Origin: Escherichia phage slur07
Reading direction: 5' to 3' (one strand)
Sequence record: NC_028780.1
DNA: 64,000 nucleotides
Shown: positions 10,974 to 49,303 of the stretch, in pieces
Position numbering within the stretch: position 1 is the stretch's first letter
Layout of the letters: the number at the start of each line of letters is the position of its first letter
Notes under the pieces: generated by a model
Told to the model about the DNA's origin: nothing
The model's database searches: none
Seen by the model: the letters and a program-made list of their open reading frames with translations, nothing else
Position numbers and translations under genes: made by a program

Positions 10974-11629
10974 GCTGTTCTCTCAAAATGATAAAGTACT
11001 GTAGGAGTCTGCTGATTATCTAAAGTTACAGTTTGTGCGCCTAATAAATTCCATGTACCGTAGCCAGGTTTAGACTCAGAAATAATTTCCTGCGAAATAG
11101 TTATTCCATATGTAGAATATGTGCTTAATACATGTTTTTGATTGTCTAAATAAGTAACTTCTAATTTACTACCATCTGTTGGATGGTCTTTATATGAATT
11201 GATAGCAGTAAATGACGCAATAGCTTCTTGTAGTGCAACACGAACTTTGGCAACAAACTCGATAGCTGTCATTCCGGTTGTTGCTGAAACTGGAAGACCA
11301 AATACTAATACAGTAACAGGAGAACCAGGAGGAAGCGAATCATCTGTCACAGTTCCTGAAAATGCCCAATAATCAGTTTGAGAAACGCCCTCAGGAGAAA
11401 CACCAGTTTTATTAGTAATAATTGTACCAACGTCTTTTATAGAAAAATTATGAACGTCATTAATAGCTGATTCTACGTTTGGTTCATAAAATCCTTTCGC
11501 TAATTGAGAAATTGTCACTGACCCAACTGATTGACGATTCATTACATCTATATTACCAGCTTTAGGTCTAAAACCAAGAAAATCGGCTAAGCGGGAAATA
11601 ACTCCCGCTTTATTATTAAGTAAACTCAT
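10970..11629 (-). CDS. 11: baseplate wedge / short tail fibre attachment protein gp11
   Basis: ATG at 11629 gives a 219 aa product ([19 protein letters not shown]...), the T4 gp11 length; the ORF track extends 6 codons further upstream. Confidence 0.85.
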
Positions 11630-13437
11630 TATGCAATCCTTATCCAACGATAAACTGTAATATATGGTTGAATGTTAGTTATTGATGTTGGCGGAGTGTG
11701 AGTAGAGTTAGTAGATGCTTTAGCTTCACGGTATTTAGTGTAGATTGGACCGGATTCATCTGGATCGTATTGACACCCACCAACAATGACTGATCCATTT
11801 TCATCAACTATTAGAACTTCTTCATCTGTTTCAGTTGCAGGAAGATTAGCATTTTCCAATGTAATAGAAGTAGAACCACCTGTTCCACCTGCAGTATGCG
11901 AAGGATTTCCGCCAGAATCTAAATCGTTGTTATTTAGAGCAAAATTCGGATCCGAAATATCTTCATTCCATCCAACTAAAACTTTTCCTTGCCCAAATAA
12001 TTTCCATGAGCCAAATCCCATATATGTAACAGGGTTGTTTGGATTAACAGCGTTTTCATATATAGTTCCAATAGGATAAATCGTATCAAAGATATTTGAA
12101 ACAGCATTAAATTCGCGTTGATAAGATTGAACTGCTTCTACATTTGGCCAACCAATTTTATCGAAGTCTGTTAAATTTACATCACCAGAAATATCTACTC
12201 CCGGTCCTTGAGATACATAAAGATTATCAGTTTCATCAATAATCTCGTCTTTTGTTAATAATGTGCCTAAATCATTATTAAACCAGGTGATATTGATAAT
12301 GTCACCATGCTCAAATACTCTATCGAAATGTAAAATTTCCGGTATGCCGTTTTCATCAGTTTCAATTGAATAATCGGTATGAGATTGTTCCCAAGTTCCA
12401 CCTAAAACAGAGCATTCTACTTCATCGTCTGAATCGGCACCAACACAATGAAATAATGGCATTCCAACTGTGCCAGCTAATTCCTGCAAAATTCCATTAA
12501 AACGAACCTCAAGAGAGTTAGGATTAATAGGTTCTCCTGGAATTAATCCAAAAGCAGAAAATGGAATTGATTTCATTGTTGATAAATCAGTAACGTAAAT
12601 ACTTCCTTCTAAAGAAGTTTTTGACGTTAATTTTGAATCTAACAATCTAATTTGACGTCTTGTATATGAACTTCTCCACTGCGATACACCATCCATAAAT
12701 GTTTCAATTTGAACAGTGTCACCAATATTACAAGGCTGTCTTAATCGAATATTAAATCCATCAAGAGGAACTAGTTCTCCTTCATTTTCGCCCGGAGAGC
12801 CAAAATCGCTGTTTTCGCTAAACACATCGCCGTAATACAATTCGTTACCACGATGTTTTACTCTGATGTTATTTACATTATAACTGGTTCCACGGAAAAC
12901 ATCTAAAAAGTCTGTTTGTCCTTGGACTTCGACTAAAAATTCTTTACGAGCTACATTACTAATGTCTGAACTGGTAATTTTGTCAATTTGTTTATTTTTG
13001 ACATATTCCCAACGTCCTGGGGCACAATACACTAGTTCTAAATCGCTGAATTGAACATTAATTTCAACTGGTACTGCAGACCCTTTAATCGTATCGCCGG
13101 AAGCAGCTACTAGTGTAACTGGGTTGACGTTCCATGTAGCAAATACGTCTCTAGCTCTAATTACCTTGTTGTAATCATTAACTGTGCCCTTTGGAAGATT
13201 TATAGTCACTCTTCCAGAAGATGTATTAATAGCGTATGATTTTCCCCATTCTGCTGTTAATGTTTGTCCTGATGAAGCATTATAAGTTTTCCAGGCACCG
13301 GCTGAATATGGAACATCACCATCACCGAGTTCATAATAAAGCTCATCAAAGTTTTCATTTATTTTTATACCACCTTTACGCAGGTAGTCACCGGTACCAT
13401 CATCTACAACATTACCGATATTAATATTTTGTTTCAT
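11629..13437 (-). CDS. 10: baseplate wedge protein gp10
   Basis: 602 aa, T4 gp10 length; synteny. Confidence 0.9.
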
Positions 13438-29082: not shown

Positions 29083-29128
29083 ATTTATGACTCGTCGTGA
29101 GACGCTCAGTTCTTTATTAGGGACTGAT

Positions 29129-29737
29129 ATGCATTTTTATCTTTATAAAATAACAAATAAAATTAATAATAAAATTTATATTGGTGTGCATTCTACCGAA
29201 AATTTAGATGATGGATATATGGGTTCTGGTAAATTATTAAAAAGAGCCCAAGATAAATATTGTATAGAAAATTTTTCTAAAGAAATATTAGAGTATTTTG
29301 ACGATAAAGAATCTATGCTTGAAGCCGAGAAAAATATTGTCACAGAAGAGTTTTTAAATAGACCAGATGTGTATAATTTAAAACTTGGAGGTGAAGGTGG
29401 ATGGGATCATATAAATAATTATCCTATGACAGATCAGCAACGCGAATTAATTTCATTGGGTGTTAAAAAGGCACATTCTAACGGAAAATTAAAAGGATGG
29501 TCTTCAAATGGATTAATGAAGAATGGCTTTGCTGGTAAAACTCATTCTCAAGAAGCTAAACGTAAAATAGCAAAAGCAAACGAAGCAAAAGTTTCTGCGG
29601 ATGAAAGAAAAAGAAGAATAGAAATTTCTAAATTATATGATTTTTCTAAACGTGGCGAATTGTCTAAATATGCTAAGCATATTGGCGTAAGTCATACTCA
29701 AGCAAAAAGAATTCTAAATCAAATTAACAATATATAA
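29129..29737 (+). CDS. segB: GIY-YIG homing endonuclease, SegB-like
   Basis: 202 aa from ATG 29129 (MHFYLYKITNKINNKIYIGVHST...GYMGSGKLL); GIY-YIG motifs; sits inside the tRNA cluster as T4 segB does. Confidence 0.8.
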   Translation: MHFYLYKITNKINNKIYIGVHSTENLDDGYMGSGKLLKRAQDKYCIENFSKEILEYFDDKESMLEAEKNIVTEEFLNRPDVYNLKLGGEGGWDHINNYPMTDQQRELISLGVKKAHSNGKLKGWSSNGLMKNGFAGKTHSQEAKRKIAKANEAKVSADERKRRIEISKLYDFSKRGELSKYAKHIGVSHTQAKRILNQINNI

Positions 29738-44114: not shown

Positions 44115-44219
44115 ATGAAAGTTTTGTTTGTTGTGTATGTGGTGATTCAATATAATTACCCAATGTTTACTTATAATCTGGTGAACAACATTATTGATAT
44201 GATTCAGAGGAGTATGTAA
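44115..44219 (+). CDS. hydrophobic 34-aa leader/membrane peptide
   Basis: MKVLFVVYVVIQYNYPMFTYNLVNNIIDMIQRSM; strong SD AAGGAG 7 nt upstream; stop overlaps next start (TAATG); downstream of early promoter 44057-44086. Confidence 0.35.
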   Translation: MKVLFVVYVVIQYNYPMFTYNLVNNIIDMIQRSM

Positions 44220-44764
44220 TGACGGTAGCGGCGAAACGATTAGTATTAGAAGTTAGTTCACTTTTTGGTGAATTGGCTATAGAAAAAGTAAATAATATGT
44301 ATCGTTTGACACAAGAAGACGATATGCTATATTTTACGCCTAGTGAAATCATTCATTTAACCCAAATTGAAAATCCTTATACTGATAAAATTGTAAGCAT
44401 TAATGATGAGCATAAAATTCATTTTTATTCTTCATGCCCAGGATTTAATATTGAAAGCGAGTCAATATGCTTATCAGTTATCCATTGGGATAGTTTTATA
44501 GATAAGATTAAATATTTTTATTATTCTAATGAAAGAAAACACAGTTTAAAATGGTTTAAAAATTGCAATGCTATTATTACTAACGCTTGCAATCAGAATG
44601 ATGAAACTGTTTTAAACGTATCAAAATGTTATGAAGATGGAGATGTCTTAACTATTCGTCAAATTGATGATTTTCGAGCACATATTGTCACATTTACCAA
44701 AGACGAAGCTATTGCACTAAAGACTTATCTTGATTCTGTTATTCCAACTATGATTTCAAAGTGA
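44219..44764 (+). CDS. hypothetical protein (paralog pair, member A)
   Basis: 181 aa; C-terminus KDEAIALKTYLDSVIPTMISK resembles that of the next gene. Confidence 0.55.
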   Translation: MTVAAKRLVLEVSSLFGELAIEKVNNMYRLTQEDDMLYFTPSEIIHLTQIENPYTDKIVSINDEHKIHFYSSCPGFNIESESICLSVIHWDSFIDKIKYFYYSNERKHSLKWFKNCNAIITNACNQNDETVLNVSKCYEDGDVLTIRQIDDFRAHIVTFTKDEAIALKTYLDSVIPTMISK

Positions 44765-44770
44765 GGAAAT

Positions 44771-45292
44771 ATGTTTATTTCAAGTGAAAGTGGTTTAATT
44801 CGTGTTGAATTTAAAAATGACATCTTCCTTAGTCAAGGAGATGATATTATTAAAATGAGTTATGACGAAATCAAGAAAATTTGTCATACTCTTGAAAGCC
44901 GTGGAAAAGTAAATGCTGTTATTGACATCGGTGATTTATGGGTAACGCTTTATGAAGTATCCGAAGGATTTAACATTGAAGATGAAAATAACATTTTAGC
45001 TATTGATAAAAGAACTGATTTGTTTGATGTATTAAAAGCCTATGAACAGTCAAATGGTGGAAGAAAAGCTGCATTGATTTATCAAAAACCACATTCATGT
45101 GGAACTGCTTCAATCATTTCAAATATTGAAGGTGAAGTTGATACTTATATGTGTGTTTTAAAAGCTGGTGGTGACCGTCATCCGGATTTTATTTCTATTC
45201 GTCAAAACAATGGAGAAATTTCATTATCAAAATCAGAAGCTGAAGCTATGATTAAGTATTTAACAACCATTACGCCTTCAATGAAAGGATAA
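44771..45292 (+). CDS. hypothetical protein (paralog pair, member B)
   Basis: 173 aa; C-terminus KSEAEAMIKYLTTITPSMKG; shared internal GFNIE(S/D)E motif. Confidence 0.55.
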   Translation: MFISSESGLIRVEFKNDIFLSQGDDIIKMSYDEIKKICHTLESRGKVNAVIDIGDLWVTLYEVSEGFNIEDENNILAIDKRTDLFDVLKAYEQSNGGRKAALIYQKPHSCGTASIISNIEGEVDTYMCVLKAGGDRHPDFISIRQNNGEISLSKSEAEAMIKYLTTITPSMKG

Positions 45293-45294
45293 TT

Positions 45295-45756
45295 ATGATT
45301 ATTAATGAAAACTCTTGGCACTATAAATTATTCAAATTGTTTAACGATGAATGGCAACGACCTAAGACATTATGCGCATATTTTTGGTCTATTGCCATTC
45401 CTACATTTTTCGTTTCTATTTTTGGGTGTGCTATACTCGTAGGGTTAACAATTATTTGTGCAGAAAGCCTACAACGTTGGCTTATTTTCGGTAGTTTATG
45501 GACTCTTCTTCCATCGGCATTTATACTTGCACTTTTGGTTGTTTTACTTATTATCGGTTCATTTGTTATTCCTGCACATTTGCGTGAAAAATATAAAGAT
45601 TATAAATGGAAAAAGGATTATGCTTTACACGTAGAAAATATTGATAGAGCGTATAAAGGTTTACCTCCTATTCAACCCAAGAAATCGATTATCGTCGAAT
45701 TTTTAAAAGCTCGTAAAGCTAAAGTATGTCCTGTTATTGAATATAAGGCTGAATGA
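45295..45756 (+). CDS. membrane protein
   Basis: 153 aa; two or three hydrophobic helices. Confidence 0.55.
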   Translation: MIINENSWHYKLFKLFNDEWQRPKTLCAYFWSIAIPTFFVSIFGCAILVGLTIICAESLQRWLIFGSLWTLLPSAFILALLVVLLIIGSFVIPAHLREKYKDYKWKKDYALHVENIDRAYKGLPPIQPKKSIIVEFLKARKAKVCPVIEYKAE

Positions 45757-46765
45757 TGAAAACAGTAATGAAAAGCTATTTTGGTAGTCATCTTTATGGA
45801 ACTTCTACCCCAGAATCTGATGTAGATTTTAAAGAAATTTTTGTTCCTCCTGCTCGCGATATTCTTATCGGAAATGTCAAAGAGCACATGAGTAAAAACA
45901 CTAACAACACATCATCTAAAACACTAAAGATGATATTGACCATGAACTATACAGTCTTAAATATTTCTTTAAATTAGCAGCAGATGGTGAAACTGTAGCA
46001 TTGGATATGCTTCACACTCCACCTGAACTAGTGGTTAAATCTGATTTGCCTGATGTGTGGAAGTTTATTCAAGACAACCGTTCTCGTTTTTATACGACTA
46101 ACATGAAATCCTATTTAGGATATGTCCGCAAGCAAGCTTCTAAATACGGCGTCAAGGGTTCTCGTTTGGCTGCATTACGTGATGTATTGAAAGTAGTTAA
46201 TCAAATCCCTGAGCAATGGGTTGATTACCAAGAAGACGGTTCCATTAAGCAGCGTCGTACTAAAGTTGAAGATATTAAGCATCGTCTTCCAGAAAACGAA
46301 TTCTGTGAATGGGTGTTCCATAATCATGAGAAAACAGGTCCACAAACGTTCTATACAGTGCTGGGTCGTAAATATCAGACAACGCTTTCTCTTATTGAGC
46401 TTAAGCAGTCACTGAACAAATTAGATGCTGAATATGGTGAACGTGCTCGTAAGGCCGAAGCTAATGAAGGTATTGATTGGAAAGCACTAAGTCATGCTTG
46501 TCGTGGTGGACTTCAACTATTGGAAATTTACAAAACTGGCGACTTGATTTATCCACTCCAAGATGCTCCATTTATTCTCGACGTGAAGTTGGGTAAACAT
46601 CCATTTAAAACAGTTCAAGAGTTTTTGGAAGATGTGGTCGATCAAGTAGAAGCAGCATCTACTGAAGCTTCTAAGAATGGTATGCCTAAAACAGTAGACA
46701 TGAGTTTCTGGGATGACTTCCTTGAGAAGGTCTATCTTGAAAACCACCGAAGTTATTATAAATGA
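45753..46765 (+). pseudogene. nucleotidyltransferase-fold gene interrupted by a -1 frameshift (programmed frameshift, pseudogene or sequencing error)
   Basis: Frame-0 ORF 45753-45977 (74 aa, GS...SDVD NTase motif) stops at TAG 45975-45977; the -1 frame is open from 45920 to 46765 (254+ codons); slippery heptamer T_TTA_AAT at 45968-45974; no SD before first downstream ATG (46007). Confidence 0.6.
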
Positions 46766-46767
46766 TA

Positions 46768-46791
46768 GGGAGCCTTCGGGCTCCCTTTTTT
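46768..46791 (+). terminator. rho-independent terminator
   Basis: GGGAGCC-TTCG-GGCTCCC + TTTTTT, directly followed by early promoter 46816-46845. Confidence 0.65.
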
Positions 46792-46801
46792 ATTTCAAAA
46801 A

Positions 46802-48895: not shown

Positions 48896-49303
48896 ATGAA
48901 ACAGTTGATAATTAAAAGATTGAATTTATTGATATGTTGTTTATGTATAGTAATTGCATATGGTTATTACGCAATTAATGATTATATGCATTATAAAGAT
49001 TATGATGTTACTGTAGTTAATACCTTTACAGGAACTCAAGGAAAGGGGTCTAGTTTATCGTTTATTGCCGTATATGAACTAAATGACGGTTATAGATTTA
49101 GCGAATATATTTCACTGGAGATGTATTCTTCAATAGAAAAAGGTGATAATATTACTGTAAGTTTACGTCCTTTCGACGTAAAACAGACATTGTTTGATAA
49201 TATTGTTTGGTTCTTTGGAATGGTATTAGTTCAATCTGTGTGTGGTGCTTATATAGTCTGTTCCATCTTATTCTGTATATTTAGTAAAATTGAAATTGAG
49301 TGA
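48896..49303 (+). CDS. membrane protein
   Basis: 135 aa; N- and C-terminal hydrophobic helices. Confidence 0.55.
   Translation: MKQLIIKRLNLLICCLCIVIAYGYYAINDYMHYKDYDVTVVNTFTGTQGKGSSLSFIAVYELNDGYRFSEYISLEMYSSIEKGDNITVSLRPFDVKQTLFDNIVWFFGMVLVQSVCGAYIVCSILFCIFSKIEIE

Follow-up and report, generated by a model that had tools for sequence, protein, structure and literature searches.

Two Pseudomonas enzymes of the RlaP family (PF10127) add one or two NMPs to the 3′-OH ends of RNA, and three catalytic Asp residues are strictly conserved in the enzymes of this family (PMC12776372). The same work, a 2025 preprint, assigned NrdC.11 of phage T4 to cluster 5 of PF10127 (PMC12776372). Nucleotide addition, which bacterial members of the family carry out as part of RNA repair, is the activity of the Pseudomonas enzymes, whereas the phage protein has been likened to RlaP by its sequence. 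The locus analysed here is the nrdC.11 gene of Escherichia phage slur07, a Tequatrovirus (T4-like) genome, and encodes an RlaP/PF10127 Pol-beta-type nucleotidyltransferase. It shares with T4 NrdC.11 and RlaP the G-S motif, the DxD motif, the third Asp and, once the sequence is repaired, the match to the family profile, but it differs from them in being interrupted after codon 56, so that no full-length enzyme is encoded.

Frameshift mutations of the Streisinger type, which arise in homopolymers, are classic in the rII and lysozyme genes of T4. The slur07 lesion does not differ from them in kind, since it consists of the loss of a single base in a mononucleotide run, with a shifted frame, an early stop and an unchanged remainder of the gene; what is unusual is that the same site has been struck in at least three backgrounds. 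With dnaX, the IS911/IS3 elements and the phage tail chaperone genes G/GT, on the other hand, slur07 has in common an in-phase X_XXY_YYZ heptamer and a long open −1 frame, but it departs from these recoded genes in that no stimulator was found, the two-frame layout is not conserved, the A-site codon AAU is a weak one and the product would be deprived of a catalytic residue. A third point of comparison is provided by the ‘savior indels’, that is, the low-level translational correction of indels (reviewed in PMC5009743). There, too, a frameshift lies near a shifty sequence, and slipping ribosomes could in principle make up for part of its effect, but slur07 gives no sign of compensation, and only about 0.1% would be expected without a stimulator.

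The two reading frames of nrdC.11 in slur07

The elements of the locus are listed below, with positions counted in the window, the whole stretch of 64,000 nucleotides that was analysed.

45295–45756, plus strand: upstream gene of 153 aa, whose TGA overlaps the start of nrdC.11 (ATGATG)
45753–46765, plus strand: nrdC.11, frameshifted; one ORF of 337 codons after restoring one A
45753–45977, plus strand: 0-frame ORF of 74 aa, starting MMKTVMKSYFGSHLYGTSTPESDVDF; 73 aa if started at ATG 45756
45918–45921, plus strand: A4 run, site of the 1-nt deletion; ancestral state A5, from the alignments with relatives
45920–46765, plus strand: −1-frame continuation, native residues 57–337 (NTKDDIDHE to the stop)
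45926–45929, plus strand: A_AAG tetramer, hypothetical leak site, read off the sequence
45968–45974, plus strand: T_TTA_AAT heptamer in slippery phase, directly 5′ of the TAG, starting on the third base of a codon
46007–46765, plus strand: downstream ORF of 252 aa as annotated publicly; covers the C-terminal portion of NrdC.11 and lacks the catalytic core at the N terminus
46767–46792, plus strand: intrinsic terminator after nrdC.11, made up of a GC-rich hairpin of 8 bp and a T-run behind it; OE5505 also has a terminator annotated here

The geometry of the locus proved to be as originally predicted. Both coordinates and translation of the 0-frame ORF were confirmed, including its end at TAG 45975–45977, and the −1 frame, in which a TAA at 45917–45919 precedes the opening at 45920, is indeed open up to its stop at 46763–46765. 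The 74-aa ORF comprises native residues 1–55 (56 by the 337-aa count), among them the G-S and DxD motifs, followed by 19 out-of-frame residues (TLKMILTMNYTVLNISLN). Normal translation from the gene start gives no access to the −1-frame continuation. As had also been pointed out, the first ATG of that frame, at 46007, is not preceded by a usable Shine-Dalgarno in the adjacent sequence (TGGTGAAACTGTAGCATTGGATATG). The overlap between the upstream gene and nrdC.11 is a normal coupled arrangement, which is likewise found in OE5505, RB32 and ESh18.

In the public slur07 record (LN881732) the split is already present, uncommented, in the form of two CDSs. The 73-aa form, started at 45756, is identical to CUL02416.1 / YP_009197358.1 of slur07 and is labelled ‘nucleotidyltransferase’, and the 252-aa product is identical to CUL02417.1 / YP_009197359.1, the adjacent slur07 gene, which is labelled ‘hypothetical protein’ and in which the profile search detected no significant Pfam family. 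These two public ORFs (73 aa and 252 aa) should be merged and flagged as a single frameshifted nrdC.11 pseudogene. Beyond annotation, the importance of the finding is little and its explanation an ordinary one.

The assignment to the Pol-beta-type nucleotidyltransferases, which the original prediction had drawn from the signature in the short ORF, was substantiated by profile searches with the repaired protein. Pfam RlaP (PF10127) was matched with 44 bits (cut-off 23, E = 2.9e-11) over residues 7–135, in one stretch that runs across the break, whereas the 74-aa fragment alone reached 18.8 bits, under the 23-bit cut-off. Likewise, phrog_388 ‘nucleotidyltransferase’ matched the repaired protein over its full length (E = 1.5e-137), and the region is labelled nrdC.11 or nucleotidyltransferase in RB32 and other records. 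The label ‘thioredoxin’, frequent on this region in phage records, obtained no support from the Pfam result.

In an alignment of 62 diverse homologues, whose numbering is used for these residues, G10, S11, D22, D24, N56 and D62 are invariant and D60 and S67 are near-invariant. N56, D60, D62 and S67 all fall within the 19 codons read out of frame in slur07, and it is the −1-frame continuation that holds them. The G-S motif and the first two Asp residues (D23 and D25 in the numbering of the 337-aa protein) are thus read in frame 0 and the third Asp, in DDIDHE, in the −1 frame; the G-S and the three catalytic Asp residues are not found in a single frame in slur07, and they come together only with one A restored. 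The AF2 model of the T2 orthologue (98% identical; pLDDT 93.8) consists of an N-terminal nucleotidyltransferase domain and a C-terminal helical domain, with D62 placed on the β-strand 61–67. Foldseek searches against the PDB returned only weak generic nucleotidyltransferase matches (kanamycin nucleotidyltransferase, HalB and 3c18; E about 1e-2), and no match to the repaired protein appeared in the PDB sequence search. Accordingly, neither the PDB sequence copy from 2026 nor the structures released up to April 2026 offered a closely related solved structure.

A one-base deletion with intact relatives

The 1.3 kb around the locus match 655 phage records, and over 20 kb of the window the best phage records are at most 97.8% identical to slur07. 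In OE5505, RB32, ESh18, JK38, EC.W1-1 and Ptacy1496, nrdC.11 is one ORF of 1011–1014 nt. Where the relatives read TCTAAAAACAC, slur07 reads TCTAAAACAC, and the one consequential difference in the DNA alignment is AAAAA versus AAAA. This agrees with the possibility, raised from the letters of slur07 itself, that one A is missing at 45918–45921 and that its restoration would bring DDIDHE into frame, given that the relatives carry five A and a single ORF. With one A restored, the 337-aa protein is 100% identical to YP_010072383 of OE5505. At the DNA level the two genes are 99.9% identical, and only one base, a synonymous one, differs besides the deletion.

The deleted form did not turn up among the phage records searched, a collection without LN881732. 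A 50-mer with the A5 run finds matches in 482 phage records, while the corresponding A4 49-mer has none in the GenBank phage records. A shorter A4 34-mer gave no match in IMG/VR, where the A5 form has four, and none in the JGI metagenome contigs or in the complete E. coli genomes; the A5 positive control excluded query masking as the cause of these zero counts. At the protein level, 1442 of 1516 phage records gave a single tblastn location with coverage of 80% or more, with homologues spanning from Tequatrovirus to T4-like phages of Aeromonas, Acinetobacter and Vibrio. Among 50%-identity representatives 3322 homologues were found, and the best 150 of these were mostly single-stretch matches with proteins of about 310–350 aa. 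Since the homologues appear as single ORFs both by tblastn and in the search of representatives, the two-frame layout is, as judged from these sequence comparisons, not conserved in nrdC.11.

We consider that the break in nrdC.11 is a genuine and recent loss-of-function mutation produced by replication slippage, a reading which, on the sequence evidence, we would give a probability of roughly 0.8. One A would have been lost from the A5 run, most likely when a strand slipped during replication. Ribosomes that begin at the usual start codon would then quit the native frame after Lys codon 56 and stop 19 codons later. The resulting 74-aa product would retain the G-S and DxD motifs but would be devoid of the invariant Asn, of the third catalytic Asp (both in the segment KNTKDDIDHE) and of the whole C-terminal helical domain, and because these parts are missing the enzyme is expected to be inactive. 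The deletion would also have brought the T_TTA_AAT heptamer into slippery phase, a coincidence to be ascribed to AT-rich sequence. Of the three readings offered by the original prediction, the inactivating deletion is the one that gained support, whereas programmed frameshifting, which had been placed first in its title, did not. The event appears to be very recent, since the repaired protein is identical to that of OE5505 and a single other, synonymous base separates the two genes. The −1 frame downstream of the break is perfectly intact, which fits a very recent event and would equally fit continued use.

The loss would be tolerated by the phage because nrdC.11 is dispensable on laboratory hosts. 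Viable T4 phages with reduced genomes have lost, among other large fragments, nrdC.11–mobD.3 (PMC9825161). Natural lesions of the gene in addition to that of slur07 also support tolerance: phage pSs-1 has lost another single nucleotide of nrdC.11, at codon 230, and a contig of ERR4089631, described below, is damaged at two places. Other truncated NrdC.11 fragments are on record as well.

The A4 allele in other backgrounds

Exact look-ups in contig indexes found the 73-aa form, while the 74-aa and 252-aa forms are not on record there. A Logan contig of SRR32729830, the NCBI assembly GCA_048639585 and a Logan contig of ERR4089631 likewise encode exactly this 73-aa (or 69-aa) product. The nrdC.11 genes of SRR32729830 and GCA_048639585 are identical to each other, which makes a single sample their probable source; their identity is 96.4% with slur07 and 99.4% with the A5 phages EC.W1-1 and Ptacy1496. 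In ERR4089631 the gene is 94.8% identical to slur07, and its best matches reach only about 96–97%. It bears in addition a second lesion, a net change of −11 nt at the positions corresponding to 46207–46258 of the window, which breaks the −1 frame. Counting slur07, the identical deletion is thus present in three divergent T-even backgrounds, and for two of the three the nearest sequenced relatives are intact at 99.4–99.9% identity. Counts of synonymous and non-synonymous changes showed few lineage-specific changes on the A4 lineages, a number compatible with a recent lesion as well as with continued constraint.

The existence of A5 neighbours at 99.4–99.9% identity makes an independent origin of the A4 alleles the simpler interpretation of these sequences. 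It is also possible that the allele arose once and was spread by recombination, in line with the sequence identity of the surrounding 120 bp in nearly all relatives. Recurrence of a 1-nt deletion across independent T-even lineages is the only mildly interesting point of the case, and it could be used to ask when an RlaP-type enzyme becomes dispensable or counter-selected. The finding of A4 in three lineages may reflect merely the large number of A5 runs that are available as mutational targets. Instead of neutral slippage, selection or an artefact specific to this site could also account for the recurrence in three backgrounds.

That the deposited sequence lacks the A through an error of sequencing or assembly, while the phage itself has an intact nrdC.11, is in our opinion unlikely, although several features of the locus are those that an error would produce. 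The break lies in a homopolymer, the remaining gene is flawless and encodes, once repaired, a protein identical to that of OE5505, and the allele occurs in no other GenBank phage record. Consensus errors at 5-base runs are, however, rare on Illumina MiSeq. Phage slur07 was plaque-purified on E. coli MG1655 and its sequence, although described as a draft genome, was obtained with Illumina MiSeq (2×250), assembled with SPAdes and checked by remapping of the reads (PMC4698387). Moreover, the window contains 370 runs of at least 5 bases (51 of them of at least 6), and no gene-breaking indel relative to JK38 is seen at any of the others. When the window was compared with JK38, using the coordinates of its CDS table, a handful of 1-nt indels was found, all but two of them intergenic. 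One of the two, at 49296, alters only the last residues of a gene, and the indel at 45918 is the only one in the window that breaks a conserved ORF. Because this sole gene-breaking indel stands against 370 such runs, a general homopolymer error problem is not visible in the window. The identical allele was furthermore recovered in independent data sets, in one case in both the NCBI and the Logan assemblies. Taken together, these observations lead us to infer that the deletion lies in the phage DNA and is not a consensus error.

Alternatively, the A5 run at codon 56 might be a recurrent switch-off site, an A5/A4 on/off tract under host-dependent selection that is favoured wherever the nucleotidyltransferase is costly or triggers a defence, with or without rare slips at A_AAG leaking a near-native enzyme from the A4 state. 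If true, this would explain the identical deletion in three divergent T-even backgrounds, which occurs with A5 relatives alongside, and the further lesions of nrdC.11 would be in keeping with it. We find this scenario improbable, and more doubtful than a consensus error. Contingency tracts typically have 7 or more bases, and a run of five is short for that role; both states occur among close relatives, but the tract of 5/4 bases does not qualify as phase-variable in the usual sense. With 370 runs of at least 5 bases in the window, occasional neutral hits in dispensable genes are to be expected. In addition, the recurrence search was able to detect this exact allele only, which constitutes an ascertainment bias. 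Concerning the leak, the tetramer at 45926–45929 is the only −1 slip site that would restore DDIDHE, at the price of two changes, N57T and T58L. One of the two changed residues is nevertheless the invariant Asn, and tetramers without a stimulator operate near background, at about 0.15%.

The proposed ribosomal frameshifting at the T_TTA_AAT heptamer

The idea that programmed −1 ribosomal frameshifting at T_TTA_AAT (45968–45974) yields a functional 337-aa fusion, named first at the outset, now appears extremely unlikely. It was founded on correct observations. The heptamer has the canonical pattern, is in phase and abuts the 0-frame stop; a further 263 codons are open in the −1 frame; and translation confirmed that a −1 slip at this point would give a 337-aa product. 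Against it, the alignment check showed the orthologues to be single ORFs, and the two-frame layout is missing from all the relatives examined. Relatives with an intact gene read these bases as TTC TTT AAA TTA, that is, in a non-slippery phase, and their conservation is thus to be attributed to selection on the protein.

The slip product would, in addition, bypass the catalytic segment. Because D62 sits in the out-of-frame stretch, a slip at T_TTA_AAT would produce a protein without the third catalytic carboxylate, lacking N56 and D62, both invariant, as well as the near-invariant D60 and S67. The second lesion of ERR4089631 points in the same direction, given that a −1 frame broken further downstream would not be expected in a recoded gene that is functional.

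No stimulator was detected on either side of the heptamer. Downstream, the 90 nt at 45975–46064, folded without pseudoknots, are less stable than their shuffles (z = +1.35; equalled or surpassed by 186 of 200), and upstream no Shine-Dalgarno-like element of the GGAG/AGGA type is present in 45940–45967. Unstimulated heptamers in E. coli do not exceed about 10 times the background of 0.055%, and shifting is poor with heterogeneous ZZN codons, AAU being one of them (PMC4066793). Transcriptional slippage, which requires runs of about 8 or more, can be dismissed for a run only 4 A long.

We judge the heptamer, on the basis of its sequence context, to be a chance by-product of the deletion. Its slippery phase was described correctly, but its frequency does not exceed chance: in the ORFs of at least 100 codons in the window, and with Y being A or T, in-phase X_XXY_YYZ heptamers number 80 per 17,046 codons, of which 13 are TTTAAAT, and the chance of finding at least one in the 19 codons from the opening of the −1 frame to the stop is about 0.086. 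Chance alone is therefore expected to place in-phase slippery heptamers beside frame breaks in AT-rich phage genomes, and conservation and the location of the catalytic residues should be considered before weight is given to them.

Further carriers of the A4 allele

The contig ABYEWA010000010.1, from an assembly labelled E. coli (GCA_048639585.1), is 169,284 bp long, matching T4-like phage genomes in size. Across the 3.2 kb surrounding nrdC.11, the stretch that was read, it is T4-like and contains the same frameshifted nrdC.11, suggesting that the host was sequenced together with a lytic phage.

The Logan contig of ERR4089631 constitutes a third carrier of the A4 allele, and its nrdC.11 bears an additional complex lesion:

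L011 (Logan ERR4089631) 286-1290; window equivalent 46207-46258: second complex lesion, net -11 nt

Through this second lesion the original frame is regained in the C-terminal part, the gene having lost 12 nt in total, while residues 56 to ~150 are still out of frame and contain several stops. The copy represents a pseudogene of greater age or, alternatively, a chimera created in assembly.

Other single-base indels

A different lesion was found in Shigella phage pSs-1:

KM501444 (L015), 11115-12124: nrdC.11 split into two ORFs of 244 aa and 81 aa

Here the split comes from the loss of one base at codon 230 (GGTGAACG to GGCG-ACG), a deletion distinct from the A4 allele. An 81-aa nrdC.11 fragment resembling that of pSs-1 is also recorded for Yersinia phage fPS-65.

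Another A-run, at window position 49296, has three bases versus four in phage JK38 (L008, ~15372). As read from coordinates and flanking sequence, this 1-nt indel falls at the extreme end of the 134-aa gene, where it alters the C-terminus from ...KIEN* to ...KIEIE*. It is a natural homopolymer indel like that of nrdC.11, and is harmless.

Annotation and upstream neighbours of nrdC.11

Many GenBank and UniRef records give the name 'thioredoxin' to NrdC.11, NrdC.10 and adjoining genes, a label apparently spread from the nrdC.x locus names. NrdC.11 is a PF10127 nucleotidyltransferase, and for NrdC.10 the matches to AAA/STAND-type ATPases are no more than weak and sub-threshold.

Upstream of nrdC.11 lies a pair of paralogues:

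44219-45292: two tandem paralogous genes (181 aa and 173 aa), each with T4_y05I_N and T4_y05I_C domains

These are putative transcription factor domains. The ORF next downstream of the pair is described in the RB32 annotation as 'replaces mobD'.

A GIY-YIG reading frame in the tRNA cluster

29087-29737, + strand: 216-aa ORF, GIY-YIG catalytic domain (Pfam PF01541)

This ORF scores 26.8 bits with PF01541 (cut-off 22.6), and NUMOD3 is sub-threshold at 20.1 bits, under its cut-off of 20.4. It is located inside the phage tRNA cluster, flanked by tRNA-Gly and tRNA-Ser. At this position JK38 has instead a tRNA-Pro and no matching DNA, and the window, in which Pro and His are missing, contains nine tRNAs versus 11 in JK38. 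The ORF resembles an inserted homing endonuclease gene of the SegB type.
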